A stretch of 64,000 bases of DNA, taken from NCBI GenBank assembly GCA_965279115.1, contig OZ257137.1, forward strand, positions 732,224 through 796,223, given 5' to 3'. This stretch comes from Burkholderiales bacterium. Its GTDB lineage: Bacteria; Pseudomonadota; Gammaproteobacteria; Burkholderiales; JAEUOS01. How positions within the stretch are numbered: the stretch's first letter is position 1; each line of letters starts with the position of its first letter. The notes under the pieces are model-generated. The model had not been told where the DNA came from, ran no database searches, and saw nothing but the letters and a program-made list of their open reading frames with translations. Positions 759-18,959 of this stretch are shown here, in pieces. A program made the position numbers and the translations under genes.

Positions 759-1460
759 TCACGCCGCGTCGCGCAACAGCCTCATGCGTTGCCGCTCCGC
801 ATTCGCCAGGTGCTGGCGCATCGCCTTGCGCGCCGCCGCGGCATCGCGCTTGCGGATCGCCTCCAGCACCGCCCGGTGTTCGGCAATGTTGTCGCGCTTG
901 CGGCCCCGGGTGACGAACAGCTCCTCGATGCGGGCATTGAGCGGCTGCCCGCCCTCCGCCCATAGACGTTCGATCACCAGCTTCAAGGCGCTGTTGGCGG
1001 AAGCCTCGGCGATGCACAGGTGAAATTCGCGGTCCGCCGCCGACTGCATGCGGTTGGCGCGCATGTCGGCGGCGAGACGCTCGAAGGCGCCTTCCAGCGC
1101 CTTCACCTGTGCCGGCGTGGCATTGCGCGCCGCCAGCGCCGCCGCCTCGCCCTCCACCAGCCGCCGGGTGCGCAGCACGTCGAAGGGCGAAATCTCCGCC
1201 GCCTTGCGCGCGCGCTGCGGCCGGCGCGGCGCCGCCGACACGTAGGCGCCGGAACCCACCTTGATGCTGATGCGCCCCTGCATTTCCAGCGCACCCAGCG
1301 CCTCGCGCAGTGAACTGCGCGATACCGAGAGCGACGTGGCCAGCTCGCGCTCCGCGGGCAGCCGCTCGCCAGGCTTGAAGGTGCCGGCCTCGATCTGGCG
1401 GACGATCTCGTCGGCGATGTGCTGGTAAAGCCGCGGTGCGGCGATGGGCTTGATGGGCAT
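759..1460 (-). CDS. GntR-family transcriptional regulator, FadR/FCD subfamily
   Basis: N-terminal winged HTH (LYQHIADEIVRQIEAGTFKPGERLPAERELATSLSVSRSSLREALGALEMQGRISIKVGSGAYV) followed by an all-helical FCD-like C-terminal domain. It is divergent from the sulfatase/Bug block. Confidence 0.9.
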   Translation of the reverse strand: MPIKPIAAPRLYQHIADEIVRQIEAGTFKPGERLPAERELATSLSVSRSSLREALGALEMQGRISIKVGSGAYVSAAPRRPQRARKAAEISPFDVLRTRRLVEGEAAALAARNATPAQVKALEGAFERLAADMRANRMQSAADREFHLCIAEASANSALKLVIERLWAEGGQPLNARIEELFVTRGRKRDNIAEHRAVLEAIRKRDAAAARKAMRQHLANAERQRMRLLRDAA

Positions 1461-1516: not shown

Positions 1517-1558
1517 TTGACACTGCCAGGGGTGGCGCGTAAATTGGTTTGAAAACCA
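1517..1558 (+). promoter_or_regulatory. sigma70-like promoter (TTGACA-17 nt-TAAATT) overlapping a perfect 14-bp palindrome TGGTTTGAAAACCA; candidate GntR operator
   Basis: TTGACA at 1517-1522, a 17-nt spacer, TAAATT at 1540-1545. The palindrome occupies 1545-1558 (arms TGGTTT/AAACCA) and fits the generic GntR GT-Nx-AC operator shape. A GGAGGAG RBS at 1566-1572 precedes the ATG at 1579. Confidence 0.5.
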
Positions 1559-1578
1559 GACCAGCGGAGGAGACCTGA

Positions 1579-2550
1579 ATGCCGGCCATGCGCTTGCTGT
1601 TGGCGTTGTTTGCTTTTGCCGCGACGCTCCCCGATGCTGTACACGCACAGACGTTTCCTTCCAGGGCGGTGCGCTTCGTGGTGCCTTTCGCACCGGGCGG
1701 CCAGTCCGACGTGGTCGCGCGCACCGTGGGACAGAAGCTGGCGGAGCGCTGGGGCCAGCCGGTGGTCATCGAAAACAAGGCGGGTGCGGCCACCACCATC
1801 GGGGCGGATTTCGTCGCCAAGTCGCCGGCGGACGGTTACACCATCCTGCTGGCGCCGGCGCCCTTCGTCATCACCCAGTACGCCTACCCGAAACTCCCCT
1901 ATGACAGCCGGCGCGATTTCACGCCGGTGACCATGCTGGTGACCAACCCGCTGGTGGTCACGGTCAATCCGGCGCGGGTACCGGCAAAGACCTTCCCGGA
2001 ATTCGTCGCGCTTGCGAAGAAGGACCCCGGCAAGTTCACCTACGGCACGCCGGGCAACGGCAGCCTGCCGCACCTGGCGGTGGAACTGTTCCGCCTGCAG
2101 TCGGGCATCGACGTGCTGCATGTGCCCTACAAGGGCGGCGGCCCCGCGGTGCTGGACATGGTGGCCGGGCAGATCGCCTTCATGTTTGCGAGCCCGCTGG
2201 AAGTCATGCCCAACGTCAAGGCGGGCAAGCTCAATGTGCTGGGGGTCACCTCCGACAAGCGGGTGGCGTACTGGCCCGAGGTACCCACCCTCAAGGAAAG
2301 CGGTTTCAAGGACTACGAGGCCTACGCCTGGTTCGGCGTCACCGCGCCGGCGGCCACGCCGAAGGACATCGTCGCCAAGCTCAATGCCGATATCGTCGCG
2401 GTGCTGAAGTCGCCGGATGTATCCGAACGCCTGGCCGCGCAGGGGGCGGATGTAGCAGCCACCTCGATCGATGATTTCGGCCGCTTCCTTGCCGCAGAAC
2501 ACGCGCGCTGGTCCGCGGCGGTCAAGGCGGCCAATGTGGTTGTGCAGTAA
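1579..2550 (+). CDS. Bug/TctC-family periplasmic solute-binding protein (tripartite tricarboxylate transporter receptor)
   Basis: Signal peptide MPAMRLLLALFAFAATLPDAVHA, then family hallmarks FPSRAVRFVVPFAPGGQSDVVAR, VVIENKAGAATTIG and SPADGYT. Length 323 aa. Confidence 0.9.
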   Translation: MPAMRLLLALFAFAATLPDAVHAQTFPSRAVRFVVPFAPGGQSDVVARTVGQKLAERWGQPVVIENKAGAATTIGADFVAKSPADGYTILLAPAPFVITQYAYPKLPYDSRRDFTPVTMLVTNPLVVTVNPARVPAKTFPEFVALAKKDPGKFTYGTPGNGSLPHLAVELFRLQSGIDVLHVPYKGGGPAVLDMVAGQIAFMFASPLEVMPNVKAGKLNVLGVTSDKRVAYWPEVPTLKESGFKDYEAYAWFGVTAPAATPKDIVAKLNADIVAVLKSPDVSERLAAQGADVAATSIDDFGRFLAAEHARWSAAVKAANVVVQ

Positions 2551-2568
2551 GCCTGACAAGGAAACGAC

Positions 2569-4866
2569 GTGAGTGACTTGAAGACCTACCCGGAAGGCAC
2601 GCCGTTTACCGGCAAGATCGGCCGCACTGCCGCCACCTCGGAACCCGCATGGCCGCTGCCCGCCCAGGCCAAACCCGGTTCGCCCAACGTGCTGGTGTTC
2701 CTGTTGGACGATGTCGGCTTCGCGCAGTTGGGCTGCTACGGCTCGGACATCGCCACGCCCAACTTCGACCGCCTCGCCGCGGGCGGCTTGCGCTACCGCG
2801 ATTTCCACACCACCGCGATCTGCTCGCCGACCCGCGCTTGCCTGCTCACCGGCCGCAACCACCACTCCAACGGCGTGGGCATCATCCAGGAAATGGCCAC
2901 CGGCTACCCCGGCTACAACGGCATGGTGCCCAAGGAAAACGGCTTCCTCTCCGAAATGTTGCTGGCCCAGGGTTACGCGACCTTCGCCATCGGCAAGTGG
3001 CACCTCACCCTGGCCGGCGAATACGCCTCCGGGGCCTCCAAGGCACGCTGGCCGTTGTCGCGCGGGTTCGAGCGCTACTACGGCTTCATCGGCGGCAAGA
3101 CCAGCCAGTGGTCGCCCACCCTGATCCACGACAGCCACTACATCGCGCCGCCCTTCACTGGCGACGAGAGCTACCACCTCAATGCCGACCTGGCCGACCG
3201 CGCCATCGAATACCTGGTGGACCTGCGCACGGTGGCGCCGCAAAAGCCCTTCTTCATGTACTACTGCCTGGGTGCTGGCCATGCGCCGCACCAGGTGGAG
3301 CGCGAATGGATAGAGCGCTATCGCGGCCGCTTCGATTGCGGCTGGGACAAATGGCGCGAAGAGGTGTTCGCACGCCAATTGAAGATGGGCATCGTCCCGC
3401 CCGGCACGAAGATCGCGCAACGGCCCGACCAGGTCAAGGCCTGGGATTCGCTTTCAGCCGACGCCAAAAAGCTCTACGCCCGCCAGATGGAGGTCTACGC
3501 CGCCTTCCTCGAACAGACCGACCACCACATCGGCCGCGTCATCGACCACCTGGAACGCATGGGCGAGCTCGACAACACCATCATCATGCTCGCCTCCGAC
3601 AACGGCGCCTCCGCCGAAGGCGGCGAGCACGGCTCCTTCAACGAATGCCAGTTCCCCAACCGGGTCGAAGCCAGCATCGCGGACAACCTCAAGCACCTGG
3701 ACGAATGGGGCGGCATCAAGTCCTTCACCAATTACGCCTGGGGCTGGGCCTGGGCCGGCAACACCCCGCTGCGGCGCTGGAAGCGCTACCTGCACCAGGG
3801 CGGCATGAGCGACCCGCTGATCGTGCACTGGCCCAAAGGCATCAAGGCGCGCGGCGAGGTGCGCGGCCAGTACGCGCATGTGGTCGACATCACGCCCACC
3901 CTGCTCGACGCGCTGGGCCTGGAACCGCCGCGCGTGCTTAACGGCGTGACCCAACGGCCGCTGGAAGGCACCAGCTTCGCGCACACCTTCAACGACGCGG
4001 CCGTGCCGACGGCCAAGCAGGTGCAGTACTACGAGATGATCGGCTCGCGCGCCATCTGGATGGACGGCTGGAAGGCGGTGGTCGAGCAGCCGCAAGGCGA
4101 CTTCATGACCGAGGAAATGCTCGACGCGCAGAAGTGGGAGCTCTACCACGTGGCCAGCGACTTCTCCGAGAGCAACAACCTGGCCGACCGGCACCCCGAG
4201 AAATTGAAGGAGATGATCGAGCGCTGGTGGATAGAGGCCGGCAAATACAACGTGCTGCCGCTGGATTCGCGCATGCAGTTGCGCATGGGCGAGCGCAAGC
4301 CCTCCACCGTCTCGCAGGGCAACCGCCATGTGTACTACCCCGGCATGGCCGCGCAGTTCGAATACACCGCGGTAAACGTGAAGAACCGCTCGCACAGCAT
4401 CACCGCCGAGGTCGAGATCTCCGCCGCGGGCGCCGAAGGCGTGCTGCTGGCGCATGGCAGCTGGTTTGCCGGCTATTCGCTGTACGTGAAGAACCGCCGC
4501 CTCACCTACGTGCACAACTACCTGGGCCTCACCGAATACCGCGTCACCGCGACCGAAGATCTGCCCGCGGGCAAGGCAGTGCTGCAGTTGCGCTTCACCC
4601 GCACCGGCGAACACCAGGGGCGCGCCGCCCTGTTCGTCAACGGCCGGCAGGTGGGCGAAGGCGAGATCCCGCGCACCATTCCGGCGGTGATCGAAACCTC
4701 GGGCGAGGGCCTGTGCTGCGGCTACGACTCCGGCGTGCCGGTCACGGCGGACTACGTGTCGCCATTCCGCTTTACCGGGCGCATCGCGCAGGTGGTGGTG
4801 GAAACCGGCGAAGGCGCCGGCGTGGACGCCGAGGCGCAGGTGCGCACCGCGTTTTCCGACCAGTAA
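2569..4866 (+). CDS. type I (S1) arylsulfatase, long form with C-terminal extension (765 aa), no signal peptide
   Basis: GTG start after an AAGGA RBS. Contains LLDDVGF, the formylglycine motif CSPTRACLLTGRNHH (Cys codon 2821-2823) and GKWHL. The N-terminus MSDLKTYPEGTPFTGKIGRT is not signal-like. Confidence 0.9.
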   Translation: MSDLKTYPEGTPFTGKIGRTAATSEPAWPLPAQAKPGSPNVLVFLLDDVGFAQLGCYGSDIATPNFDRLAAGGLRYRDFHTTAICSPTRACLLTGRNHHSNGVGIIQEMATGYPGYNGMVPKENGFLSEMLLAQGYATFAIGKWHLTLAGEYASGASKARWPLSRGFERYYGFIGGKTSQWSPTLIHDSHYIAPPFTGDESYHLNADLADRAIEYLVDLRTVAPQKPFFMYYCLGAGHAPHQVEREWIERYRGRFDCGWDKWREEVFARQLKMGIVPPGTKIAQRPDQVKAWDSLSADAKKLYARQMEVYAAFLEQTDHHIGRVIDHLERMGELDNTIIMLASDNGASAEGGEHGSFNECQFPNRVEASIADNLKHLDEWGGIKSFTNYAWGWAWAGNTPLRRWKRYLHQGGMSDPLIVHWPKGIKARGEVRGQYAHVVDITPTLLDALGLEPPRVLNGVTQRPLEGTSFAHTFNDAAVPTAKQVQYYEMIGSRAIWMDGWKAVVEQPQGDFMTEEMLDAQKWELYHVASDFSESNNLADRHPEKLKEMIERWWIEAGKYNVLPLDSRMQLRMGERKPSTVSQGNRHVYYPGMAAQFEYTAVNVKNRSHSITAEVEISAAGAEGVLLAHGSWFAGYSLYVKNRRLTYVHNYLGLTEYRVTATEDLPAGKAVLQLRFTRTGEHQGRAALFVNGRQVGEGEIPRTIPAVIETSGEGLCCGYDSGVPVTADYVSPFRFTGRIAQVVVETGEGAGVDAEAQVRTAFSDQ

Positions 4867-4883
4867 ACGCCCGGGAGAGCCGC

Positions 4884-5855
4884 ATGAGAAAAACGTTCGC
4901 AAGCGTGCTGCTTGGCGCAACCGTGCTGGCCGGCGTGCTCATGCCGATGGGCGACGTCGTCGCCCAGCCCTACCCGTCAAAGCCGATCAAGCTGATCATC
5001 CCCTATGCCCCGGGCGGCAATACCGACATCGTCGCGCGCATCTTCGGGCAAAAACTGGGCGAGCGCATCGCCCAGCCGGTGGTGTTCGACAACCGCGGCG
5101 GCGCCACCGGCACGCTCGGGGTAGGCGTGGCCGCCAAATCGCCCGCCGACGGCTACACCATCGTCATCGGCGACCTGGGCTCGATGGTGATCGCCAACCA
5201 TGCCATCCCCAGCCTGCCGTATCACCCGCTCAAGGACCTGGCGCCGATCGGCCTGGTGACCGGCGTTTCGGTCGTGGTCACGGTCAACCCGCAATCGCCG
5301 GTGACGGGCTTCGAAGACCTGCTCGCCCGCGCCCGCGCCCAGCCTGGCAAGCTCACCTACGGCACCTCCGGCGTGGGTTCGCCCAGCCACATGGCCATGG
5401 AACTGGTGCAGTCGATGACCGGCGTCAGGCTGCTGCATGTGCCGTTCAAGGGCGGCGCGCAGGCGGTCACCGCCGTGATTGGCGGCCAGATCGACTTTCT
5501 GGTCGATGGCGCCGCCTTCGGCCAGGTCAAGGGCGGCCGCCTGAAGGCGATCGCCGTGACCGGCCCGCGCCTGCCGGCCCTGCCCGATACGCCCGGCATA
5601 GGCGAGACCATCAAGGGTTTCGAATTCACCAACTGGTGGGGCTTCCTGGCACCCGCCGGCACGCCGCCAGAGGCGATCAACCGGCTCAACGAGGAATTCA
5701 CGCAGATCGCTGCGCTGCCGGAGATCCGCGACCGCCTGAACGCCCTGGGGCTGGCGGCGCGCAGCGGCACACCGCAGCAATTCGCCGACCACCTCGCAAG
5801 CGAGACCGGGAAGATCGCCCGCATCGTCAAGGATGCCGCGATCAAGTTCGAATAG
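4884..5855 (+). CDS. Bug/TctC-family periplasmic solute-binding protein
   Basis: ATG 4884 gives MRKTFASVLLGATVLAGVLMPMGDVVAQPYPSKPIKLIIPYAPGGNTDIVAR. The track ORF 4134-5855 is an in-frame upstream extension that overlaps the sulfatase. Confidence 0.9.
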   Translation: MRKTFASVLLGATVLAGVLMPMGDVVAQPYPSKPIKLIIPYAPGGNTDIVARIFGQKLGERIAQPVVFDNRGGATGTLGVGVAAKSPADGYTIVIGDLGSMVIANHAIPSLPYHPLKDLAPIGLVTGVSVVVTVNPQSPVTGFEDLLARARAQPGKLTYGTSGVGSPSHMAMELVQSMTGVRLLHVPFKGGAQAVTAVIGGQIDFLVDGAAFGQVKGGRLKAIAVTGPRLPALPDTPGIGETIKGFEFTNWWGFLAPAGTPPEAINRLNEEFTQIAALPEIRDRLNALGLAARSGTPQQFADHLASETGKIARIVKDAAIKFE

Positions 5856-5871
5856 ACCACGAGACACCCAA

Positions 5872-7347
5872 ATGGCACAACGTCCCAACATCCTCTGGTA
5901 CTGCTCGGACCAGCAGCGCCACGACACCATCCGCGCGCTCGGCCAGCCGCACATCGAAACCCCCAATCTCGACGCCCTGTGCGCCAGCGGCGTGGCCTTC
6001 CGGCGCGCCTATACCCAGAGCCAGATCTGCACGCCGTCGCGGGCCAGCTTTCTCACCGGGCGCTACCCCGCCAGCCACCATGTGTACCGCAACGGCAATG
6101 CCTACTTCCCGGCGCACGAAAAGCTGGTCACCCGCCTGTTCGCCGACGCCGGCTACGATTGCGGGCTGGTCGGCAAGCTGCACCTGTCGGCCGCCAAGTA
6201 TTTCGAGCAGCGCCCGGACGACGGCTACCGCATGTTCCAGTGGAGCCACCACCCCACCCCGGACGCGGCGCGCGGCCACGACTACGAAAGCTGGTTGCGT
6301 TACGAGAAGAAGGTCGACCCGATCGAGCTGTACGCCTCCCACAACCAGTTCTGCGGCCCGGGCGTCGCCGCGCAGTACCACCAGACCACCTGGGTCTCGG
6401 AGATGGCGATCCGCTTCATCCGCGAGCAGCGCGACGGCCCCTGGCTGTTGTCGCTCAACCCCTTCGACCCGCACGCGCCCTTCGACGCGCCGCCTGAATA
6501 CCTGGCGAAGGTACGGGCGGAGTCGCTGCCCTTCCCTCTGTTCCGCGACAGCGATATCGAGCGCCAGAAGGCCTTTGTCGCCATCGACCAGCAGACCAAG
6601 GTGGCGGTCGATCCGCGGGTGCGCCGCGAGGGCAGCACGGTGGTCGAGCGCGAGCACGACCTGGTGGCCTCCAAGCCGCCGGATGCCTACGACGCGCTGG
6701 AAGTCAAGGCCAACTACTACGCCATGATCATGCTCATCGACGACCAGTTCAGGCGCATCGTCGACGCCCTGCGCGACAGCGGGCAGCTCGACAACACGCT
6801 GATCGTCTACATGAGCGACCATGGCGAGCTGCTTGGCGACCACGGCCTGATCCTCAAGGGCTGCCGGTTTTTTGAAGGCCTGGTGCACATCCCGATGATC
6901 TTTTCCTGGCCGGAGCGCTTTGCGAAAGGCGTGCAGAGCGAGGCGCTGGTTGAATCGGTCGATGTCGCCCCCACGCTGCTGGAAGCCGCCGGGCTGGCGG
7001 TGCCGGAATCGATGCAGGGCGCCTCGCTCATGCCCATCCTTGAAGGCCGCGCCGATCCGCACCACCACAAGGACCGCGTGATCTCGGAGTTCCACGACTC
7101 CATCGGCGGGCCGCGCCATACCGACCACACCCATGGCTCGATGGTGTTCGACGGTCGCTACAAGAGCGTGGTGTATCACGGCCACCAGGTAGGAGAACTC
7201 TACGACCTGCAGCAGGACCCCGGCGAATTCGACAACCTGTGGAACGACCCCGCCGCGCGTGAACTCAAGACCGAGCGCCTGAAAGCGCACCTGGACGCGA
7301 TGATGGCCACCGTGAGCGCGGGCCCGCCGCGCAGCGTGGCCTACTGA
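5872..7347 (+). CDS. type I sulfatase, short form (491 aa), no signal peptide
   Basis: Starts MAQRPNILWYCSDQQRHD. Formylglycine motif CTPSRASFLTGR (Cys codon 6028-6030), plus MSDHGE and DLQQDPGEFDNLW. Start chosen at ATG 5872, which lies inside track ORF 5833-7347. Confidence 0.9.
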   Translation: MAQRPNILWYCSDQQRHDTIRALGQPHIETPNLDALCASGVAFRRAYTQSQICTPSRASFLTGRYPASHHVYRNGNAYFPAHEKLVTRLFADAGYDCGLVGKLHLSAAKYFEQRPDDGYRMFQWSHHPTPDAARGHDYESWLRYEKKVDPIELYASHNQFCGPGVAAQYHQTTWVSEMAIRFIREQRDGPWLLSLNPFDPHAPFDAPPEYLAKVRAESLPFPLFRDSDIERQKAFVAIDQQTKVAVDPRVRREGSTVVEREHDLVASKPPDAYDALEVKANYYAMIMLIDDQFRRIVDALRDSGQLDNTLIVYMSDHGELLGDHGLILKGCRFFEGLVHIPMIFSWPERFAKGVQSEALVESVDVAPTLLEAAGLAVPESMQGASLMPILEGRADPHHHKDRVISEFHDSIGGPRHTDHTHGSMVFDGRYKSVVYHGHQVGELYDLQQDPGEFDNLWNDPAARELKTERLKAHLDAMMATVSAGPPRSVAY

Positions 7348-7366
7348 AACCACCGAGGAGAAATCC

Positions 7367-9592
7367 ATGACAGACCCCGCATTCGGCGGCAAGATCGGCC
7401 GCACCCGCGAGGAATCCACCCCCTGGTGGCCGGAGCGCAAGGAGGCGCAGAAAGGCAGCCCGAACATCGTCATCGTGTTCATGGACGACATGGGCTGGTC
7501 CGACCCCGGCTGCTACGGATCCGAGATCGACACGCCGCATATCAACGCGCTGGCCGCGCGCGGCGTGCGGCTCACCCACTACACCACCCACGCGATCTGC
7601 TCGCCGGCGCGCGCGGCCTTGCTCACCGGCTGCAACGCGCACGGCGTGGGCACCGGCTGGCTGGCCAACAACCATCCGGGCTACCCCGGCTACTCCGGCG
7701 AGATCCCGCTGGAAGCCGCCACCCTGCCCGAGACCCTGCGCGCCGCCGGCTACGAAACCATCATGGTCGGCAAGTGGCACAACACGCCGGCAGCCGACAA
7801 CGTGCCCGGCGGCTCCAAACACAACTGGCCCTCGCAGCGTGGGTTCGACACCTACTACGGCTTCATGGATGGCGAGACCAACCATTTCTTCCCGGCCCGG
7901 CTGATGCTCGGCAACCAGGTGCTGCCGGTCGACGAGTATCCGCGCGACTACTACACCGGCGACGACTGGATGGACCAGGGCATACGCTTCGTGCGCGAGT
8001 TGCGCGAGAGCAGCCCGCACAAGCCCTTCTTCCTCTACGTGGCCAACAACGCCATGCACGCCCCGCTGCAAGCCAAGCCCTCGGACATGGCCAAGTACAA
8101 GGGCAGGTACGACGCCGGCTGGACCGCCGCCCGCCAGGCGCGCCACCAACGCCAGATCGAGATGGGCCTGATCCCGCCGGATACCAAACTGCCGGCCTCC
8201 GACCCGCGCGTGCCGCAATGGGATGCCACCGATCCGGAGAACCGCCCGCTCTATGCGCGCCACATGGAAGCCTTTGCCGGCATGCTCGACAACGCCGACC
8301 AGAATGTCGGCAAGCTGGTGGCCTTTCTGGAATCGATAGGCGAGCTCGACAACACCATCATCCTGTTCTCTTCCGACAATGGCGGCACCGACGCCGGCGG
8401 CGAACACGGCATGGTGCAGAACAACCGTCGCTATTCCGGCCTGCCCACCCAGCCGCTGGCCGACGAGCGGCGCATGCTGGCGCAACTGGGCGGCCCGCAG
8501 AGCATTTCGCTCTATCCCACCGCCTGGGGCGAGGTGTCGAACACGCCCTTCCCCAGCTTCAAGACCTACACCGGCGGCGGTGGACGGCGGGTGTCCTTCA
8601 TCGCCTCCTGGCCGGCGCGGCTCAAGGACCGCGGCAGTATCCGCCGGCAGTTCATGCATGTCACCGACGTGATGCCGACCCTGCTCGACATGGCGGGGGT
8701 AGCGCGGCTTGAGACCAGCCATGGCAAGCCGGCACGTCCGCTCGATGGCAAGAGTTGCGCGCAGATGCTGCTGGAGGACGCACCCTCGCCGCGCAGCGAG
8801 CAGTACTACGAATGCTGGTCCAACCGTGCCTACTACCGCGACGGCTGGCTGGCGCGCTCGCTGCAGATCCGTGACCGGCCGATCGACATGGACAACTGGA
8901 CCCTGCACAACCTTGCGGAGGACTTTTCCGAATCCACCGACATCGCCGCGCAACATCCGGACAAGCTCAAGGAACTCATCGAGGCCTTCGATGCGGCGGC
9001 TTGGATGTACTTTGTCTACCCGCTCGACAACCGCGGCCGGCCGGGCAAGTTCAGCGACGTGCCGGCCTGGGCGCGCGAGCGCGCCAACCATCCGCGCCGC
9101 TTCCTGCCCGGGTCGCAGACCGCGCACCGCAGCGACGTGTTTCCCCTGGTGGGCAACCGCTCGTTCCGCATCCGCACCCGTTTCGAACAGCGCGCCGGCG
9201 ACGAAGGCGTGCTGTGGTCGCTGGGCGACATCATCGCCGGCATGGTGATGTATGTCGAAGCCGACCGCCTGAACTTTCACTACAACGGCTTTTCCGAGCC
9301 CGCCAATTTTCCGCCGGTCAACCTCGCACCCGGCGCACATGAGGCGGTGATCGAGTACGAGGCGCTCGGCAAGCGGCGCGGCCGGGGACGCCTGCTTCTC
9401 GACGGCGCCGAATGCATTGGCTGGACCGAACTTTCGCCCACCCTCATGCTCGGCCCCTTCGAAGGCATGGACGTGGGCCTGGACCGGCGCGCGCCGGTGT
9501 TCTGGGAACTCTACGAAAGACATGGCGCCTACCGGTACAGCGGTGCCATCGAGGATGTGTGGATCGACCCGGGCGAGCGCGCCACGGCATGA
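7367..9592 (+). CDS. type I arylsulfatase, long form (741 aa), no signal peptide
   Basis: A GAGGAG RBS precedes the start. N-terminus MTDPAFGGKIGRTREESTPWWP. Contains FMDDMGW, CSPARAALLTGCNAH (Cys codon 7598-7600) and GKWHN. It is a paralogue of 2569-4866. Confidence 0.9.
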   Translation: MTDPAFGGKIGRTREESTPWWPERKEAQKGSPNIVIVFMDDMGWSDPGCYGSEIDTPHINALAARGVRLTHYTTHAICSPARAALLTGCNAHGVGTGWLANNHPGYPGYSGEIPLEAATLPETLRAAGYETIMVGKWHNTPAADNVPGGSKHNWPSQRGFDTYYGFMDGETNHFFPARLMLGNQVLPVDEYPRDYYTGDDWMDQGIRFVRELRESSPHKPFFLYVANNAMHAPLQAKPSDMAKYKGRYDAGWTAARQARHQRQIEMGLIPPDTKLPASDPRVPQWDATDPENRPLYARHMEAFAGMLDNADQNVGKLVAFLESIGELDNTIILFSSDNGGTDAGGEHGMVQNNRRYSGLPTQPLADERRMLAQLGGPQSISLYPTAWGEVSNTPFPSFKTYTGGGGRRVSFIASWPARLKDRGSIRRQFMHVTDVMPTLLDMAGVARLETSHGKPARPLDGKSCAQMLLEDAPSPRSEQYYECWSNRAYYRDGWLARSLQIRDRPIDMDNWTLHNLAEDFSESTDIAAQHPDKLKELIEAFDAAAWMYFVYPLDNRGRPGKFSDVPAWARERANHPRRFLPGSQTAHRSDVFPLVGNRSFRIRTRFEQRAGDEGVLWSLGDIIAGMVMYVEADRLNFHYNGFSEPANFPPVNLAPGAHEAVIEYEALGKRRGRGRLLLDGAECIGWTELSPTLMLGPFEGMDVGLDRRAPVFWELYERHGAYRYSGAIEDVWIDPGERATA

Positions 9593-9605
9593 AAAGGAGC
9601 AGGCC

Positions 9606-10592
9606 ATGAATCAGCGACGCAGGGTTCTGGCGGGCGGTGCGGCGGCGACATGGCTGGCGCTCGGGTTGCCGCGTCACGCCATGGCGCAGGGCGCCGGCTA
9701 CCCCAATCGGCCGATCCGCATCGTCGTGCCCTTTCCGCCCGGCATTCCGCTCGACGTGATCCTGCGCGTGGTCGGACAGCGCCTTTCGACCAGCCTGGGC
9801 CAGCCGGTGGTGATCGAAAACAAACCCGGTGCAGGTGGCAATATCGGCACCGAGTTCGCGGCGCGCGCGCCGGCCGACGGCTACACTCTCCTGGGCACCA
9901 CCAGCGGCTTCGTGGCCAACCCCAGCCTTTTCAGCAAGGTCAGCTACGACCCGCAGAAGGATTTTGTTCCCGTCACCGGGCTGATCCGCACCCCGGCCGT
10001 GCTGGTGGTGGCGACGGACTCGCCGATCCGGTCCATCGACGAGCTCATCGCGCGCGCCAGGGCCAAGCCCGGAGGCCTGTCGTTCGCCTCGGGAGGCAAC
10101 GGGTCACTGGCGCATTTCTGCGGCGAATTGTTCAAGGCGGCCGCCGGCATCGAGGCGCTGCACACCCCCTACAAGGCGGCGCCCGACATCCTCAATTCGC
10201 TGTTGTCGAAACAGACCGACTATGCGTTCCCGGTGTTCGCCACCGCGCTCACCCACATCAAGGCGGGCAAGTTCCGCGCGCTCGCCGTCACTTCGCAGAA
10301 GCGCATGGCGCAGCTGCCAGACGCGCCGACCGTGCTCGAGGTGATGAAGGGCGGCTTCGACCTGGAATCCGAGAACGGCCTGGTGGTCGCGGCCGGCACA
10401 CCGCCCGACATCGTCGCTCGCCTGAACGCGGAGGTTGTGAAGATCCTGCGCGATCCGGCCGTGGCCGAGCCGATGGTCAACGCCGGCTTCGAGATGGTCG
10501 GCAGCACGGCGGCGGAATTCGGCGCGCGCATCGCCAAGGACGTGGCCCGGTATGCGGATATCGTCAAGCGCTCGGGCGCGAAGGTCGACTGA
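9606..10592 (+). CDS. Bug/TctC-family periplasmic solute-binding protein
   Basis: ATG 9606 gives MNQRRRVLAGGAAATWLALGLPRHAMAQGAGYPNRPIRIVVPFPPGIPLDVILR, then VVIENKPGAGGNIG and APADGYT. The N-region is Arg-rich (RRR). Confidence 0.9.
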   Translation: MNQRRRVLAGGAAATWLALGLPRHAMAQGAGYPNRPIRIVVPFPPGIPLDVILRVVGQRLSTSLGQPVVIENKPGAGGNIGTEFAARAPADGYTLLGTTSGFVANPSLFSKVSYDPQKDFVPVTGLIRTPAVLVVATDSPIRSIDELIARARAKPGGLSFASGGNGSLAHFCGELFKAAAGIEALHTPYKAAPDILNSLLSKQTDYAFPVFATALTHIKAGKFRALAVTSQKRMAQLPDAPTVLEVMKGGFDLESENGLVVAAGTPPDIVARLNAEVVKILRDPAVAEPMVNAGFEMVGSTAAEFGARIAKDVARYADIVKRSGAKVD

Positions 10593-10613
10593 ACTCTCCC
10601 AGGGAGAAGGCAC

Positions 10614-11591
10614 ATGGGCATCGCACGCATTCGTCTGTTTCTGGCCGCGGCATGTTTTTTCAACTGCGTGAGCGGGATGGCGCAATCTTCCGGCGACTAC
10701 CCCAACCGGGCGGTGCGCATGATCGTGCCGCAGGCCGCCGGCGGCGGGCTCGACGCTTCCACCCGGGTGATCGCCACCCGCCTGACCGAAAACCTCGGCC
10801 AGAGCATCGTCATCGAAAACCGCCCCAGCGCCGGCGGCATCGCCGGCATGGAAGCGGTGGCCAAGGCGGCACCCGACGGATATACGGTGCTGATGGCCTC
10901 GGCCACGGTGGCGCTCAACAACGCGCTGGGCATGAAGCTGCCCTACGACCTGGAGCGCGATTTCGCGCCGGTCTCGCTCGGGGTCTCGATCCCGATGCTG
11001 TTCGTCGCGCACCCGGCCAGCGCGTACAGGTCGCTCCGGGATGTGGTCGAAGATTCAAAGCGCCAAAGTGGCGGTGTGGCCGTCGCCATCGCCTCCATCG
11101 GCACGCTGCCGCACCTGCTCTCGGAGATGATGCGTTTCAAGACCGGCGCCAACCTGAACCTGATCTTTTACAAGGGCGCGGCGCCGGCCTCGCTTGACGT
11201 GCTGTCCGGCCAGATCCCGTTTTTCATCGATGCGATCAGCCCGGTGGGCACGCATGTGGCCGCCGGCAAGTTGCGCGCGCTGGCGCTGGCTGCGAAAGCC
11301 CGCTCGCCGCTTTTTCCCGATGTGCCGACGGTGGCCGAGCAAGGCATGCCGGACCTGGTCGGTGCCGCGTTCTACGGGCTGCTGGTCCCGGCCCGCACCC
11401 CGCCTGCGATCCAGCGGCGCCTGCACCAGGCGATGGTCGCCGCGCTCGCCCACCCCGAAGTGCGCGAACGGCTCCTGAAACAGGGCTACGAGATCCACGC
11501 CTCTACCGGCGAGGAGTACGCTGCGTACATGAAAAACGAGATCGGCCGCTGGTCGCCCGTGGTCAAGGCGGCGGGGATCAAGGCCGAGTAA
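10614..11591 (+). CDS. Bug/TctC-family periplasmic solute-binding protein
   Basis: Signal peptide MGIARIRLFLAAACFFNCVSGMAQS, then YPNRAVRMIVPQAAGGGLDASTR, IVIENRPSAGG and APDGYT. Confidence 0.9.
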   Translation: MGIARIRLFLAAACFFNCVSGMAQSSGDYPNRAVRMIVPQAAGGGLDASTRVIATRLTENLGQSIVIENRPSAGGIAGMEAVAKAAPDGYTVLMASATVALNNALGMKLPYDLERDFAPVSLGVSIPMLFVAHPASAYRSLRDVVEDSKRQSGGVAVAIASIGTLPHLLSEMMRFKTGANLNLIFYKGAAPASLDVLSGQIPFFIDAISPVGTHVAAGKLRALALAAKARSPLFPDVPTVAEQGMPDLVGAAFYGLLVPARTPPAIQRRLHQAMVAALAHPEVRERLLKQGYEIHASTGEEYAAYMKNEIGRWSPVVKAAGIKAE

Positions 11592-11617
11592 TCCGGTTGC
11601 GTAGAGGAGGGCGGGAC

Positions 11618-12622
11618 ATGAAAATGCAGCCAATTCGAGCCGCCGCGCGGCGCCTCGCGCTGTGGATGGCCGGCCTGCTGGCAGCGGCGCTGCCGCACAT
11701 CGCACCCGCGCAGGGCGGCGGCGCATGGCCGGCGCGGCCGATCCGCGTGATCGTCTCGTATGCGCCGGGCGGTGTCACCGACATCATCGCGCGCGCGGTG
11801 GCGCAACCCATGGGCGAGGCGCTGGGACAATCGGTCGTGGTGGAAAACCGGCCGGGTGCCGCCGGCGTGATCGGCACCGAACTGGTGGCCGCCGCGCCGC
11901 CCGACGGCCATACGCTGCTGATGTTCGTCGACGGCAACGCGATGATGCCCTCGGCGATTCGCAACCTGAAGCACGACCCGGTGAAAAGCTTCGCCCACAT
12001 CAGCCTGCTCGGACGCGGCTCGCTGGTATTGGTGGCCCATCCTTCGCTGCCGGTGGCGAACCTGCAGGATGTGATCCGCTACGGCCGTGCCAACCCCACC
12101 GCATTATCGTTCGCAACACCCGGAAAAAGCGGCCCGCAACATCTCGCCTTCGAAAGCATCAAGGCAAGCGCCGGTTTTTCCGCCGAGCACATTCCCTACA
12201 AGGGCGGCGGCCAGGCGATCGTCGACGTGGTGGCCGGGCAGGTCAAGCTTGGCATGCTGGGCATGGCGCCCGCGCTGCCGCATGTGAAAACCGGCAAGCT
12301 CAAGGCACTGGTGGTTACCAGCCGCGAGCGTTCGCGCCTGCTGCCGGAGGTGCCGACGGTGGCCGAATCCGGCATTCCCGGCTTCGAGATGGCGCAGTGG
12401 CAGGGCATGGTCGCACCCGCCGGCACCCCGCCGGAGATCCTTGCCCGGCTGCATGCGGAGCTGGTCAAGGCCATGCGCACTCCGGCGGTGATGGAACGAC
12501 TGGCCGCCATCGGCATGGACAATGCCACCAGCAGCAGCCCGGAAGACTTCACCCAGATGGTGCAGGTCGAGACCCGGCGCTTTCCCGAACTGTTCCGCAT
12601 TGCAGGCATCCAACCGGAGTGA
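11618..12622 (+). CDS. Bug/TctC-family periplasmic solute-binding protein
   Basis: ATG 11618 follows a GAGGAGG RBS; the track begins at TTG 11597. Contains WPARPIRVIVSYAPGGVTDIIAR, VVVENRPGAAG and PPDGHT. Confidence 0.85.
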   Translation: MKMQPIRAAARRLALWMAGLLAAALPHIAPAQGGGAWPARPIRVIVSYAPGGVTDIIARAVAQPMGEALGQSVVVENRPGAAGVIGTELVAAAPPDGHTLLMFVDGNAMMPSAIRNLKHDPVKSFAHISLLGRGSLVLVAHPSLPVANLQDVIRYGRANPTALSFATPGKSGPQHLAFESIKASAGFSAEHIPYKGGGQAIVDVVAGQVKLGMLGMAPALPHVKTGKLKALVVTSRERSRLLPEVPTVAESGIPGFEMAQWQGMVAPAGTPPEILARLHAELVKAMRTPAVMERLAAIGMDNATSSSPEDFTQMVQVETRRFPELFRIAGIQPE

Positions 12623-12626
12623 AACC

Positions 12627-14156
12627 ATGGGCAAAAAAACCAACATCCTGTTCATCACCTCCGACCAGCAGCGCGCCGACTGCTATGGCTTTGAAGGACG
12701 GCGGGTGAAGACCCCGCACCTCGACGAAATGGCACGCAACGGCACCCGCTTCTCGGCGGCCATCACGCCCAACCTGGTGTGCCAGCCCTCGCGCGCCTCC
12801 ATCCTCACCGGGCTGCTCCCGCTTACCCACGGCGTATCCGACAACGGCATCGACCTGCCGCCCGCGACAGGCGAAGCGGGCTACGGCGGCACCTTGTCCA
12901 AGGCCGGCTACGCCACCGCGCTGATCGGCAAGGCGCACTTCAGTACCTCGAACTGCTTCGAGCCCACCGGCACGCCGGAATGCACGGTGAGCTGCGCCAA
13001 CTATCCGGCCGACTGGCACGGCCCCTACATGGGGCTTGATCATGTGGAGATGATGCTCGAAGGGCACAACATGTTCCCGCCGATGAAGCCGCCGCTGGGC
13101 CACGCCTACGAGCGCTGGTACCACGCCGACGGCCGCGGCGAAGAGCGCACCGCCCTGTACCGCAAACGCCTGCCGCCGATCAGCGACGCCCACGAAACCT
13201 TCAACTCGGGCCTGCCGGTGGCCTGGCACAACTCCACCTGGATAGGCAATCGCACCATCGACTACCTGCGCGAGCATCGCGACGGCCCGTTCTGCCTGTG
13301 GGCCTCCTTTCCCGACCCGCACCACCCGTTCGATGCGCCCGACCCGTGGTGCTACATGCACTCTCCCGACGAGGTCGAGTTGCCGGTGCACGGCGCGATG
13401 GACCTCGAGCGCCGCCCGTGGTGGCATCGCGCCGCGCTCGAAGGCGTGCCGAAGATGGCCAACGAGCGCCTGCGCGCCTTCCGCGAGAAGTCCTCGCGCA
13501 CGCCGAAGCAGAGCGAGGCGCAGATGCGCGCGTTGATCGCCAACTACTACGGCATGATCTCCCTGATCGACCATCAGGTCGGGCGCATCCGCATCGCCTT
13601 GAACGACCTGGGCCTGGCCGAGAACACCCTGATCGTGTATTCCACCGACCATGGCGACTGGCTGGGTGACCACGGCCTGCTGCTCAAGGGGCCGATGGCA
13701 TACGAAGGCCTGCTGCGCGTCGGCATGCTTTTCGAAGGGCCGGGCGTGCCAAAGGGCAAGGTGGTGGCCGACCCGGTATCGACCCTCGACCTGCCGGCCA
13801 CTTTCTGTGACTACGCTGGCGTCTCCCTGCCCGGCAAGGTACACAGCCGTTCCCTCAAGCCGCTGATCGAAACCGACACCGCCACACGCGATTTCGCACT
13901 CTCCGAATGGGACCTGCGCGCCTCGCGCTGCGGCGTCGACTTGGCGCTGCGCACGGTGCGCACCAAAACCCGCAAGCTCACACTGGAGAAGAACAGCGGC
14001 GCCGGCGAACTCTATGACCTGGCCGAAGACCCGCACGAGATGGACAACCGCTTCGGCGACCCCGCCTATGCCAAGGTGCAACGCGAATTGATGGACATGA
14101 TCGCCAGCCGGCCGGACGACGCCTGCGCGCCATTGCCGCAGATCGGCATGGCTTGA
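12627..14156 (+). CDS. type I sulfatase, short form (509 aa), no signal peptide
   Basis: Starts MGKKTNILFITSDQQRAD. Formylglycine motif CQPSRASILTG (Cys codon 12780-12782), plus STDHGDWLGDHG and YDLAEDPHEMDN. It begins 4 nt after the preceding Bug stop and is a paralogue of 5872-7347. Confidence 0.9.
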   Translation: MGKKTNILFITSDQQRADCYGFEGRRVKTPHLDEMARNGTRFSAAITPNLVCQPSRASILTGLLPLTHGVSDNGIDLPPATGEAGYGGTLSKAGYATALIGKAHFSTSNCFEPTGTPECTVSCANYPADWHGPYMGLDHVEMMLEGHNMFPPMKPPLGHAYERWYHADGRGEERTALYRKRLPPISDAHETFNSGLPVAWHNSTWIGNRTIDYLREHRDGPFCLWASFPDPHHPFDAPDPWCYMHSPDEVELPVHGAMDLERRPWWHRAALEGVPKMANERLRAFREKSSRTPKQSEAQMRALIANYYGMISLIDHQVGRIRIALNDLGLAENTLIVYSTDHGDWLGDHGLLLKGPMAYEGLLRVGMLFEGPGVPKGKVVADPVSTLDLPATFCDYAGVSLPGKVHSRSLKPLIETDTATRDFALSEWDLRASRCGVDLALRTVRTKTRKLTLEKNSGAGELYDLAEDPHEMDNRFGDPAYAKVQRELMDMIASRPDDACAPLPQIGMA

Positions 14157-14184
14157 GCGGCTGGCGCGCAGCGCTGCAACGGCC

Positions 14185-15348
14185 ATGAAGATCGCCGACA
14201 TCGCCTACCGGGTTCTGCACGTAAGCGCCAAGACCAACTGGTCCTTCGTTGAACTGCGCACCGCTGACGGGCTCACCGGCTGGGGCGAATGCTCCCTCAA
14301 CGGCTGGGAGCCCTTGCAGCGCGAATATGCAAACAGCTGGTGGCCAGGCTTGATCGGCGCCGCGGTTGGCGACCTGGCCGCCACCCAGGCAATATGCGCG
14401 ATTCACCAGCACTCACCCGGCGGCCTGGTCGCGCATTCGATCAGGAGCGCGACCGAGCAGGCCTTGCTGGACGCGCTCGCGCAGGCGCGCGGGGTGCCCC
14501 TGTGGAAACTGCTGGGTCCCGCACTGCGCGACGCCGTCGAGGTATACGCCAACATCAACCGGGCCACCCAGCCGCGCACGCCGCAGGGTTTCGCCGCCAG
14601 CGCGCGGTTTGCGGTGGCGCAGGGATACCGGGCGATCAAGCTCGCCCCCTTCGATGGCGTGTTGCCGGCGAACGCCGAGACGGCTGACGGCGCGCGACTG
14701 ATCGCCGCCGCGCACGAGCGCATCCGCGCGGTGCGCGAGGCCGTTGGCGAGGGCGTGCGCGTGATGGTCGATTGCCACTGGCGGCTGACCCCGCGCACCG
14801 CGCGCGAAACGCTAGCCGCCTTGCGCGAGGTCAGGCTGCACTGGCTGGAATGCCCGATTTCCGAGCGCGGCTCGCAGCACGACGAGATTCTGGCCTTGCG
14901 TCGCATCGCCAACTCACAGGACGTGCGCCTGGCCGGCGCGGAAAAGGAGACCGAGGTGGAAGGCTTCCTCCCCTATCTTGAACGCGGCCTGTACGACACC
15001 ATCATGCCGGATGTGAAGTATTGCGGCGGTGTTGGCGCCCTGCTGCGCATAGCGCAGCTTGCCGAACGCCACGGTGTGCAGACCGCGCCGCACAATCCCA
15101 CCGGCCCGATTTGCAACTACGCCAGCGTGCATGCCTGCATGGTCGGCGCCGGCTGCGATTTCCTCGAACTGCAGGTAGGCGAGAGCGGCCTGTTCACCGA
15201 GGCAGTTGACGGGCGCTATCCGGAGTTCGTGGACGGGCACTTCAGGCAGCCGCAACAGGCGGGGATGGGCGCAGCGCTCAACCCGCAAGTGCTGGATGCA
15301 CATCCGTTCGCGGCGGTGAGCTTCGGGCTCGACCCGGCGCTGGGGTGA
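14185..15348 (+). CDS. enolase-superfamily enzyme (mandelate racemase/muconate lactonizing family; probable acid-sugar dehydratase)
   Basis: N-terminal capping domain (WSFVELRTADGLTGWGEC). Barrel motifs VMVDCHWRL, WLECPI, LAGAEKE, IMPDVKYCGGV and APHNPTGPI match the Asp/Glu/Glu metal ligands and catalytic His of this family. Confidence 0.85.
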   Translation: MKIADIAYRVLHVSAKTNWSFVELRTADGLTGWGECSLNGWEPLQREYANSWWPGLIGAAVGDLAATQAICAIHQHSPGGLVAHSIRSATEQALLDALAQARGVPLWKLLGPALRDAVEVYANINRATQPRTPQGFAASARFAVAQGYRAIKLAPFDGVLPANAETADGARLIAAAHERIRAVREAVGEGVRVMVDCHWRLTPRTARETLAALREVRLHWLECPISERGSQHDEILALRRIANSQDVRLAGAEKETEVEGFLPYLERGLYDTIMPDVKYCGGVGALLRIAQLAERHGVQTAPHNPTGPICNYASVHACMVGAGCDFLELQVGESGLFTEAVDGRYPEFVDGHFRQPQQAGMGAALNPQVLDAHPFAAVSFGLDPALG

Positions 15349-16388
15349 CGAGGCGGCCGGATCCCATGCAAACCCCACTTCCGGGAGACCCTCACGTGAC
15401 AATCGACTTGTCCTGCGCGGACCGCAAGCGGCGCAGGCTTTTGCTGGCCGCGACTGCGGCCGCACTCGCCCCGCGCGTAGCGCCGGCGCAGGAATATCCC
15501 TCGAAAACCATCCGCATCGTTTCGCCCTTCTCGCCCGGCGCGACCTCCGACCTGGTCGCCCGCGCGCTCGGTCCCGCCCTCGCCGCCGCCTGGGGTGTGG
15601 GCGTAGTGGCCGAGAACAAGCCCGGTGGCGGCAGCGTGGTGGGTGCGGACCTGGTCGCCAAGAGCGCACCAGATGGCCACACCTTGTTGGTGGCCGCCGC
15701 GGCCATCGGCGTAATCCCGGCGCTGCTGCCCAGGCTGCCCTTCGTGCCCTACAAGGACCTCTTGCCCATCACATTGGTGGGCACCGTGCCCTTCATGATG
15801 CTGGTGCACCCGTCAGTCCCGGCCAAAACCGTGCAGGAGTTCGTCGCTTACGCCAAGGCCAATCCCGGCAAGCTCAATTTCAGCTCCGGCGGCAATGGCA
15901 CCATCCCGCACATGGGCGGCGAGTTGCTGAAACTGCGCGCCGGCCTCGATATGACCCACGTGCCGTTCAAGGGCGGTGCCGATTCGCTGACAGCACTGCT
16001 TGGCGGCCAGGTGCAGATGACCATCGACGGCGGGCCGCACGTGATCGGCCACATCCGCTCGGGCGCGCTGCGCATGCTGGGCGTCGCGACCCTGCAGCGC
16101 CTGGCGGAATTTCCGAACACGCCCACCATCGCCGAATCCGGTTTCCCGAGTTTCGAAAGCAACGCCTGGCAATCCCTGTGGGTGACCGGCGGCACACCGG
16201 CACCGGTGGTGAAGAAGATCTCAACGGAGGTCATGCGCATCCTGCGCATGCCCGAGATGGTCGAGCGCCTGCGCGCCATGGGCGTGACAACGATCGGCGG
16301 CACGCCGGAAGAGGCGGAGACCTTCATCCGCGCCGAAACCACCAAATGGGGCGCTGTGATCAAGGCATCAGGAGCCAAGGCGGAATGA
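15345..16388 (+). CDS. Bug/TctC-family periplasmic solute-binding protein
   Basis: GTG 15345 overlaps the preceding TGA (GTGA). Alternative starts are ATG 15366 and GTG 15396. Contains DRKRRRLLLAATAAALAPRVAPAQEYPSKTIRIVSPFSPGATSDLVAR, ENKPGGG and APDGHT. Confidence 0.85.
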   Translation: MTRRPDPMQTPLPGDPHVTIDLSCADRKRRRLLLAATAAALAPRVAPAQEYPSKTIRIVSPFSPGATSDLVARALGPALAAAWGVGVVAENKPGGGSVVGADLVAKSAPDGHTLLVAAAAIGVIPALLPRLPFVPYKDLLPITLVGTVPFMMLVHPSVPAKTVQEFVAYAKANPGKLNFSSGGNGTIPHMGGELLKLRAGLDMTHVPFKGGADSLTALLGGQVQMTIDGGPHVIGHIRSGALRMLGVATLQRLAEFPNTPTIAESGFPSFESNAWQSLWVTGGTPAPVVKKISTEVMRILRMPEMVERLRAMGVTTIGGTPEEAETFIRAETTKWGAVIKASGAKAE

Positions 16389-17392: not shown

Positions 17393-17459
17393 TCGTCATG
17401 GTGATCAGGCCGGACGCGACCCGGGCAAACCGGAGGGTGCGGCGCATGAGAGGCGATCG

Positions 17460-17491
17460 CGGATGCGCCCGACCATGCGCATCCGGATTTT
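17460..17491 (+). terminator. rho-independent terminator candidate closing the 12-gene block
   Basis: Perfect 9-bp stem CGGATGCGC/GCGCATCCG (17460-17468 and 17477-17485) with an 8-nt loop, followed by GATTTTG. It lies 68 nt after the AKR stop. Confidence 0.6.
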
Positions 17492-17575
17492 GCCGTGCCG
17501 GCGCCAACCTGCGAGAATCCACAGGGTCGCGCATGACATTACCTTTCCAACCTGCGCTCCCATAGGAGGATATCC

Positions 17576-18019
17576 ATGAACACAGTTCAAAGCGCACTGG
17601 CCCAGAAGAGCGGCGCCATCATCCATGTCCGTTCCGACGACATGGTCGTCAAGGCCCTTCTGCAGATGCGGGACAATCGCGTCCGCTCGGTGCTCGTCAT
17701 CGATGAGGGAGTCCTGGTCGGCATCGTGACCCAGGGCGACTGCGCCATCAAGGTGCTGCTGCCGGGGCTCGATGCGAAACAGACGGTGGTCAGCCAGGTC
17801 ATGACGCGCAACCCCATGACTGTCAAGCTGGCAGACCCGCTGGAAGCTTGCATGAGCCTGATGGCCGCAAAGGGCTTTCGCCATCTGCCCGTACTGGACG
17901 AAGGCAAGGTCGTGGGCGTGATCTCCATCGGGGACGTCGTCAAGGACATCATCCGCGACCTGCAGCACAACGTGGGCGACCTGATGGGCTACATCATGAC
18001 TGACAGCCCCGGGGGCTGA
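17576..18019 (+). CDS. CBS-pair domain protein (stand-alone, 147 aa)
   Basis: A strong AGGAGG RBS precedes the start. Two CBS repeats are present (VRSVLVIDEGVLVGIVTQGD and FRHLPVLDEGKVVGVISIGD). Confidence 0.85.
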   Translation: MNTVQSALAQKSGAIIHVRSDDMVVKALLQMRDNRVRSVLVIDEGVLVGIVTQGDCAIKVLLPGLDAKQTVVSQVMTRNPMTVKLADPLEACMSLMAAKGFRHLPVLDEGKVVGVISIGDVVKDIIRDLQHNVGDLMGYIMTDSPGG

Positions 18020-18943: not shown

Positions 18944-18959
18944 TTTGCGAGGAAAGAAC

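Follow-up and report, generated by a model that had tools for sequence, protein, structure and literature searches.

The 64,000-nucleotide stretch analyzed here (the window; contig OZ257137.1, positions 732,224 to 796,223) comes from a Burkholderiales bacterium and has a GC content of ~66%. Twelve close-packed genes on its plus strand (1579-17392, ~16 kb) form a putative operon in which four sulfatase genes, two long (L1 and L2) and two short (S1 and S2), are interspersed with genes for TctC-family solute-binding proteins (Bug proteins). The order is Bug1-L1-Bug2-S1-L2-Bug3-Bug4-Bug5-S2-MR_MLE enzyme-Bug6-aldo/keto reductase (Table 1). A sequence-only reading had placed the four sulfatases at the positions listed there, in the order Bug-long-Bug-short-long-Bug-Bug-Bug-short. 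All four open reading frames (ORFs) proved open on the plus strand at those positions and lengths, and every intervening gene was a PF03401 (TctC) gene. The starts of S1 and S2 agree with the 491 and 509 amino acids of database homologues at 95-98% and 94% identity, respectively. The intergenic spacing of -4 to 28 nt is compatible with the single transcript assumed in that reading, and because of this tight same-strand arrangement the genes would be transcribed together; internal terminator-like sites numbered 9, against 10.4 expected from shuffled sequence. On the evidence of their homologues, the four sulfatases are four separate, ancient, and widely distributed lineages.

Table 1. Features of the sulfatase operon and its upstream region (positions in the window; aa, amino acids)
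Feature	Position	Strand	Evidence and remarks
GntR/FCD regulator	759-1460	-	Pfam GntR E 7e-20, FCD E 2e-27; divergent from the operon
Promoter-like site and inverted repeat	1517-1563	+	Promoter scan match 10/12; putative operator
Bug1, TctC-family periplasmic solute-binding protein	1579-2550	+	PF03401 E 3e-77; hydrophobic signal-like N-terminus
L1, long Cys-type sulfatase, 765 aa	2569-4866	+	PF00884 E 1e-60; GTG start
Bug2, TctC-family binding protein	4884-5855	+	PF03401 E 3e-58
S1, short Cys-type sulfatase, 491 aa	5872-7347	+	PF00884 E 3e-51, SGSH_C E 1e-26; "D-Q" metal-site type
L2, long Cys-type sulfatase, 741 aa	7367-9592	+	PF00884 E 3e-49
Bug3, TctC-family binding protein	9606-10592	+	PF03401 E 1e-66; RRR-containing signal-like N-terminus
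Bug4, TctC-family binding protein	10614-11591	+	PF03401 E 3e-59
Bug5, TctC-family binding protein	11618-12622	+	PF03401 E 4e-74
S2, short Cys-type sulfatase, 509 aa	12627-14156	+	PF00884 E 2e-38, SGSH_C E 4e-16; "D-Q" metal-site type
MR_MLE enolase-superfamily enzyme, acid-sugar-dehydratase-like	14185-15348	+	MR_MLE_C E 7e-46, MR_MLE_N E 1e-10
Bug6, TctC-family binding protein	15345-16388	+	PF03401 E 6e-69; 4-nt overlap with each neighbor
Aldo/keto reductase, aldose-1-dehydrogenase-like	16385-17392	+	PF00248 E 1e-40; ends the same-strand run

All four proteins matched PF00884 (Sulfatase) with E-values of 2e-38 to 1e-60 and 133-206 bits, against a gathering cut-off of 25. The motif C-x-P-x-R was found where it had been read before, at nt 2821 (CSPTR, L1), 6028 (CTPSR, S1), 7598 (CSPAR, L2), and 12780 (CQPSR, S2). 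In the extended form C-x-P-x-R-xxx-L-T-G the four sites read CSPTRACLLTG (L1), CTPSRASFLTG (S1), CSPARAALLTG (L2), and CQPSRASILTG (S2), with Cys in every case, and no fifth signature of this form occurred in the six frames of the 64-kb window. The catalytic residues were scored by the numbering of PAS, the arylsulfatase AtsA of Pseudomonas aeruginosa (D13, D14, R55, K113, H115, H211, D317, N318, K375). By these residues, all four appear to be type I (family S1) formylglycine-dependent sulfatases with a complete catalytic set, and they form two architectural classes with two paralogues each, all Cys-type, as previously described. Scores for all four fell below the cut-off of each NCBIfam equivalog: PRK13759, arylsulfatase (best score 256 bits against 481), TIGR03417, choline-sulfatase (186 against 433), NF045661, PehA (218 against 900), and NF052527, Mn-dependent arylsulfatase (120 against 850). 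The four enzymes are uncharacterized members of known sulfatase groups, and their operon context was not found described in the literature searched.

The sequence-only reading had also proposed that an ancestral long plus short pair was duplicated and then diverged, a model that found no support: phylogeny, outside orthologues, unpaired Bug genes, and synteny all argue against it. In the fuller form of this model, a long+short+Bug unit was copied and the copies became L1/S1 and L2/S2. That a single operon holds both architectural classes, with two members apiece, would fit, as would the homology of L1 with L2 and of S1 with S2 over their full lengths. Pairwise alignment gave 37% identity for L1 and L2 (residues 13-750 vs. 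6-739, E 9e-160), running through the C-terminal extension, and 33% for S1 and S2 (E 5e-69); long and short proteins were only 23-25% identical. However, other classes or phyla contain far closer orthologues of each of the four proteins (60-90% identity), so the paralogue splits would long predate the operon. L1 orthologues were found at 90-93% in Burkholderiales metagenome-assembled genomes (MAGs) and at 71-76% in Alphaproteobacteria. For L2, orthologues with 63% identity or more made up at least 120 clusters defined at the 90% level, and those listed with a name or an organism come from Burkholderiales, Hyphomicrobiaceae, Acetobacteraceae, Chloroflexota, Gammaproteobacteria, Gemmatimonadota, and Opitutae. 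At least 120 clusters were likewise found for S1 (at 63% or more, plus 80 metagenome loci at 49-85%) and for S2 (at 68% or more). Because each sulfatase forms an orthologue group of its own, the four are probably non-redundant, in agreement with the earlier suggestion.

Trees were built by neighbor-joining on corrected identities with 100 bootstraps. The long-sulfatase tree contained 112 full-length sequences: L1 with 7 orthologues, L2 with 12, and one representative each of 91 clusters formed at 50% identity. Bootstrap support was 100% for the clade of L1 and its orthologues and likewise for that of L2, but the sister relationship expected from a duplication never appeared in the 100 bootstrap trees. 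The smallest split holding both L1 and L2 comprised 71 taxa (minimum 45 in the bootstraps), where a sister pairing would give 21. Among the 112 long sulfatases L2 was only the 76th nearest neighbor of L1, and 10 non-orthologous representatives were closer to L2 than L1 was. L1 and L2 thus do not form a sister pair. In the short-sulfatase tree, the clades of S1 and S2 were also supported at 100% each, and an exclusive S1+S2 group was recovered in 3/100 bootstraps, with just 11 other short paralogues as comparators. Among themselves, the six Bug genes of the operon were 29-40% identical, which is no more than their 33-45% identity to four Bug genes outside it. They showed no pairing, and three of them stand between L2 and S2; both points argue against the copying of a long+short+Bug unit.

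Gene order was compared in 149 fetched sulfatase-anchored loci (1.58 Mb; three-digit L numbers below). The full GntR-to-S2 arrangement was found only in L003 and L043 and part of it, owing to contig ends or gene loss, in L001, L007, L010, and L054; all are uncultured Burkholderiales MAGs. Elsewhere the sulfatases occur in smaller sets. In Alphaproteobacteria, L1 and L2 orthologues are neighbors without S1 (L011, L012, L014, L004). The operon of a Hyphomicrobiaceae MAG (L072, JBJXDZ010000068.1, 4516-13404), L1-TctC-TctB-TctA-L2-MR_MLE with a divergent short-chain dehydrogenase gene, shows the long-sulfatase system in its clearest minimal form; unlike the window operon, it has a complete tripartite tricarboxylate transporter (TTT) set, TctCBA, between the L1 and L2 orthologues. 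The commonest context of S1 orthologues was GntR(-)|Bug1|S1 with no other window-type sulfatase near (11 metagenome loci), and in a few loci L1 preceded or followed S1. Orthologues of S1 and S2 lay within ~5 kb of each other, without long sulfatases, in nine loci. In one of these, a metagenome contig (L112, WLWD01000751.1, 5983-12571), the S1 (60%) and S2 (60%) orthologues stand on either side of genes for an SBP_bac_5 binding protein and two ABC permeases, with an IS66 transposase gene ~2.5 kb upstream.

Adjacent L1 and S1 orthologues, or ones with only Bug2 between them, do occur (L074, L075, L076, L079, L080) and would favor the duplication of a long+short+Bug unit. However, the order of L1 and S1 varies between loci, and elsewhere like stands with like, L1 with L2 and S1 with S2, at least as frequently as long with short. 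Together with the trees, these patterns make such a duplication most improbable. The cluster reads instead as a mosaic of pre-existing units, GntR-Bug1-S1, L1+L2, and S2 with an enolase-type gene, rather than as the product of a long+short duplication in situ. An obligatory link between L1 and L2 was considered and rejected: L076 and L079 have an L1 orthologue but no L2, and L1 is missing beside many orthologues of L2.

Three of the loci carry features of their own. In L003, a Burkholderiales MAG, the S2 orthologue (92%) is directly followed by a second S2-like gene (58%; 16752-19800 for both), a paralogue that the window lacks. In L007 (10001-12734) the L2 match takes up 2734 nt for 734 residues, and no S1 match lies between Bug2 and L2, which points to the loss of S1 and to an insertion, frameshift, or assembly error in the L2 gene. 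In L070 (MAG-204) a further 506-aa sulfatase gene, missed by the S1/S2 similarity filter, lies past the GntR gene on the opposite strand (1805-3325, minus), accompanied by TctC, short-chain dehydrogenase, and enoyl-CoA hydratase genes.

The PAS-like catalytic domain covers approximately residues 38-554 in L1 and 31-541 in L2. L1 matched PAS itself (1hdh) at E 3e-83 over residues 38-554 and 7all at E 5e-73. For L2 the best-scoring solved chain was 7all, named "arylsulfatase" (E 2e-81), with 1hdh at E 6e-78; the next solved relatives reached only E 1e-34 (L1) and 9e-44 (L2). The whole of PAS aligns with both proteins, with the DD, Cys/FGly, R, K-x-H, H, D-N, and K positions conserved. In L1, D47, D48, C85, R89, K-W-H, H, D-N, and K align residue by residue with the catalytic residues of 1hdh, and the four-way alignment gave an identical pattern for L2. 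Like L1 and L2, PAS is a Cys-type enzyme without a signal peptide. The catalytic domains of the long pair thus appear PAS-like, near SulfAtlas S1_4, the subfamily of PAS (PMC5066984). S1_4 also includes the carbohydrate sulfatases BT4683 (3S-Gal) and BT3487 (6S-Gal) (bioRxiv 10.1101/2020.11.20.392076); we assumed 7all to be BT4683, since the same paper, which describes that enzyme, cites 7ALL.

L1 and L2 differ from PAS (536 aa) at both ends. Their shared and distinctive N-terminus, noted before and visible in the alignment, is a hydrophilic extension of 30-37 residues, F-x-G-K-I-G-R-T...S-x-P-x-W-P, that precedes the catalytic domain (window 2569-2680 and 7367-7460); the consensus of L2 homologues also carries it, and PAS does not. 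The large C-terminal extension previously described in both was likewise confirmed: it has ~200-210 aa (approximately residues 555-765 in L1 and 545-741 in L2) and gave no named Pfam domain at E up to 0.01. A structure prediction had been proposed as a check, and the AlphaFold2 model of L2 residues 530-741 was a beta-sandwich (pLDDT 89.3, pTM 0.80), a domain that PAS lacks. Its best Foldseek matches in the PDB were CBM40 sialic-acid-binding modules and laminin-G/LNS domains (E 5e-7 to 1e-5, TM ~0.5), so the modeled domain is like a concanavalin-A/laminin-G-type beta-sandwich. The L1 extension is homologous to it, with 28% identity to the L2 C-terminal fragment and a pairwise alignment that reaches the ends. 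At E up to 1e-30, a full HMMER scan with L1 returned 4,460 cluster representatives (50% identity). Among the top 150 of these, most were 740-800 aa long and aligned as far as L1 residue ~745-760. Judging from these matches, the long architecture is very common. Database names of the nearest long-family representatives were just the generic "arylsulfatase," and a literature search on long arylsulfatases with a concanavalin-A-like domain found nothing specific.

The short pair shares a different N-terminus, as had been noted and as the alignment shows, and a different residue pattern, D-Q...C-x-P-x-R...K-x-H...H-x-P...D-H-G...K, in which D-Q replaces D-D and D-H-G replaces D-N-G. The nearest solved relatives were 7oz8, 4upl/4upi/4uph, and 2vqr for S1 (E 1e-40 to 2e-47) and 6pt4, 4upi, and 4upl for S2 (E 7e-40 to 2e-37). 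With ~500 aa and the same residue pattern, the two proteins resemble a set of short sulfatase and phosphonate monoester hydrolase (PMH) chains (4upi, 4upl, 4uph, 2vqr, 2w8s, 7oz8; E 1e-33 to 2e-47), in which D-Q and D-H are also found, but are not close to any single one. Of these, 4upi and 4upl are named "sulfatase family protein," 4uph "sulfatase," 2vqr is a Rhizobium leguminosarum enzyme, and 2w8s is the Burkholderia caryophylli PMH. S1 and S2 appear to be "D-Q"-type enzymes near the SpAS/PMH group. The formylglycine-dependent acesulfame sulfatase of Shinella was set aside as a relative because of its described context, a plasmid amidase cluster.

S1 and/or S2 could instead be primarily phosphonate-monoester or phosphodiester hydrolases, alkaline-phosphatase-superfamily enzymes in which the formylglycine site is the same. 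The PMHs 2vqr, 2w8s, and 4upk are among their solved relatives, and the PehA model matched S1 at 218 bits and S2 at 176. These scores, however, are far under the 900-bit cut-off; S1 and S2 also stayed well under those of PRK13759 (256 and 224 bits) and choline sulfatase (179 and 186). The sulfatases 7oz8, 4upl, 4upi, 4uph, and 6pt4 scored as high as the PMHs or above them, and the operon partners of S1 and S2 are sulfatases. We consider such a primary function very unlikely.

None of the four sulfatases has a signal peptide, an N-terminal hydrophobic segment, or a twin-arginine motif, and in S1 and S2 the catalytic domain begins at residue 4-5. All six operon Bug proteins have signal-like N-termini. 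Given this difference, a cytoplasmic location is predicted for the sulfatases and a periplasmic one for the Bug proteins. In the periplasm, the Bug proteins would probably bind several related small sulfated organic anions and hand them to TctAB membrane components encoded elsewhere. The window resembles in this the TTT systems with "orphan" Bug/TctC proteins of Burkholderiales, with six TctC genes in the operon, at least six more outside it, and no TctA or TctB among the window ORFs scanned. A literature search on TTT-linked sulfatases returned nothing specific, and we infer the link between TTT import and sulfate esters from the operon itself.

Upstream of Bug1, a promoter-like TTGACA-17-TAAATT (1517-1545) is directly followed by the inverted repeat TGGTTTG-AAAAC-CAGACCA. 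A GntR/FCD homologue (57-76% identity) occupies the same divergent position in seven distinct loci (L003, L007, L010, L043, L054, L079, L081). In the aligned GntR-Bug1 intergenic regions of all seven, the -35 and -10 elements and a palindrome TGGTCTG-N5-CAGACCA are conserved. TGGT-N6-ACCA, which occurs once in the whole window, was tried as the conserved operator in that exact form and dropped, as the orthologous loci do not keep it as such. The palindrome fits the T-x-GT...AC-x-A operator type of GntR/FadR-family repressors and is probably the GntR/FCD operator. The divergent protein would repress the operon at this site, which overlaps the promoter or transcription start, until the substrate or a product relieves the repression.

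The last two enzymes of the operon give a hint of what happens to the desulfated products. The five best solved relatives of the aldo/keto reductase were all L-galactose dehydrogenases (E 8e-28 to 2e-19). The MR_MLE enzyme had no close solved relative (best E 2.5e-27), and its nearest NCBIfam models were galactonate, gluconate, and mannonate dehydratase, with galactonate best at 145 bits against a cut-off of 311. Oxidative non-phosphorylative aldose pathways of the L-fucose/L-galactose type likewise pair an aldose 1-dehydrogenase with an enolase-superfamily aldonate dehydratase, but here both matches are distant and under the curated cut-offs. Because this pairing fits such a route, our best guess is that the substrates are sulfated monosaccharides or sulfated sugar acids, an assignment that we put forward tentatively, as possible rather than probable. 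In line with it, S1_4, the subfamily near which the long pair lies, has carbohydrate sulfatases among its members (3S-Gal and 6S-Gal; bioRxiv 10.1101/2020.11.20.392076). The fetched loci contained 18 enolase-superfamily genes; where coordinates were compared, they lay shortly after a sulfatase gene or its Bug gene and in the same orientation (L004/L072, L006, L015, L017, L049, L088, L100, L145). By informal comparison, such genes look commoner near sulfatases than genome-wide.

Taken together, we think it quite probable that the locus is a GntR/FCD-repressed 12-gene operon, assembled as a mosaic, through which small sulfated organic anions are taken up and then desulfated by four cytoplasmic sulfatases of old lineages. 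Each enzyme would remove sulfate esters with its own positional or substrate specificity, and the products would pass to the L-galactose-dehydrogenase-like reductase and the enolase-superfamily dehydratase. The general scheme, import followed by cytoplasmic desulfation of several related small sulfated anions, is likely, and the functional reading given earlier, in which several sulfate groups are removed stepwise or a range of related substrates is served, appears reasonable.

Alternatively, the cluster could scavenge sulfur, its arylsulfatases being induced by sulfate starvation, as with Pseudomonas atsA, and freeing sulfate from soil aryl or alkyl sulfate esters whatever the carbon skeleton. 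PAS, the best-characterized relative of the long enzymes, has been described as a sulfur-scavenging enzyme (PMC5066984), and the related loci come from soil and freshwater MAGs. The context differs, however: L1 and L2 lie in a GntR/TTT operon and not in an ats sulfur-starvation cluster. A GntR/FCD regulator with a conserved putative operator is typical of substrate-specific catabolic control, the aldose-dehydrogenase-like reductase and the enolase-superfamily dehydratase are translationally coupled within the operon, and six different binding proteins would be a large outlay for sulfur supply alone. The neighborhood also has no genes for sulfate or sulfonate transport. Scavenging is therefore an unlikely main role.

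Several observations weigh against the proposed mosaic operon for import and cytoplasmic desulfation of sulfated anions. No formylglycine-generating enzyme (FGE) was found in the window, by Pfam on most large ORFs and an FGE motif scan, nor were TctA or TctB among the window ORFs scanned (Pfam, most large ORFs), so that sulfatase maturation and membrane transport would depend on loci outside the window. The substrates of characterized TTT systems are mainly carboxylates, not sugars. The operon has no lactonase, kinase, or aldolase gene. The enolase-superfamily genes next to sulfatases in different loci are not orthologous, that of the window and the Hyphomicrobiaceae one being 28% identical. 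Co-occurrence is partial, L1 with L2 in 5/14 well-flanked loci and S2 with S1 in 2/22. As for the trees, the distances behind them are deep (1.2-1.4 substitutions per site), and the comparators in the short tree, harvested from the fetched loci, are a small and opportunistic outgroup sample.

Two paralogous cytoplasmic sulfatases flanking an importer (L1-TctCBA-L2, S1-ABC-S2), often followed by an enolase-superfamily gene and in the window operon also by the L-galactose-dehydrogenase-like reductase gene, might even mark an undescribed pathway in soil and freshwater Proteobacteria, with TTT/Bug import of small multiply sulfated sugars or sugar acids, stepwise desulfation inside the cell, and an oxidative aldonate route. 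We regard this wider proposal as doubtful. The like-with-like pairs could be obligate sequential partners or even hetero-oligomers.

Much of the organic sulfur in soil is present as sulfate esters, and few natural substrates have been established for PAS-like and short "D-Q" sulfatases of bacteria. The operon and its relatives offer a testable set for substrate identification: four enzymes, six binding proteins, a regulator with a putative operator, and two downstream enzymes. In these bacteria, clusters of several sulfatases would arise through recombination of old lineages and not through local duplication, so paralogue pairs in one operon should not be taken as recent duplicates.

The further TctC/Bug genes of the window lie at 18945-19922, 19959-20936, ~21685-22821 (minus strand), ~24700-25773 (minus strand), 42332-43411, and 45966-47027. 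Their neighbors include genes for a CoA-transferase III, a glutathione S-transferase (GST), an enoyl-CoA hydratase, and a luciferase-like monooxygenase.

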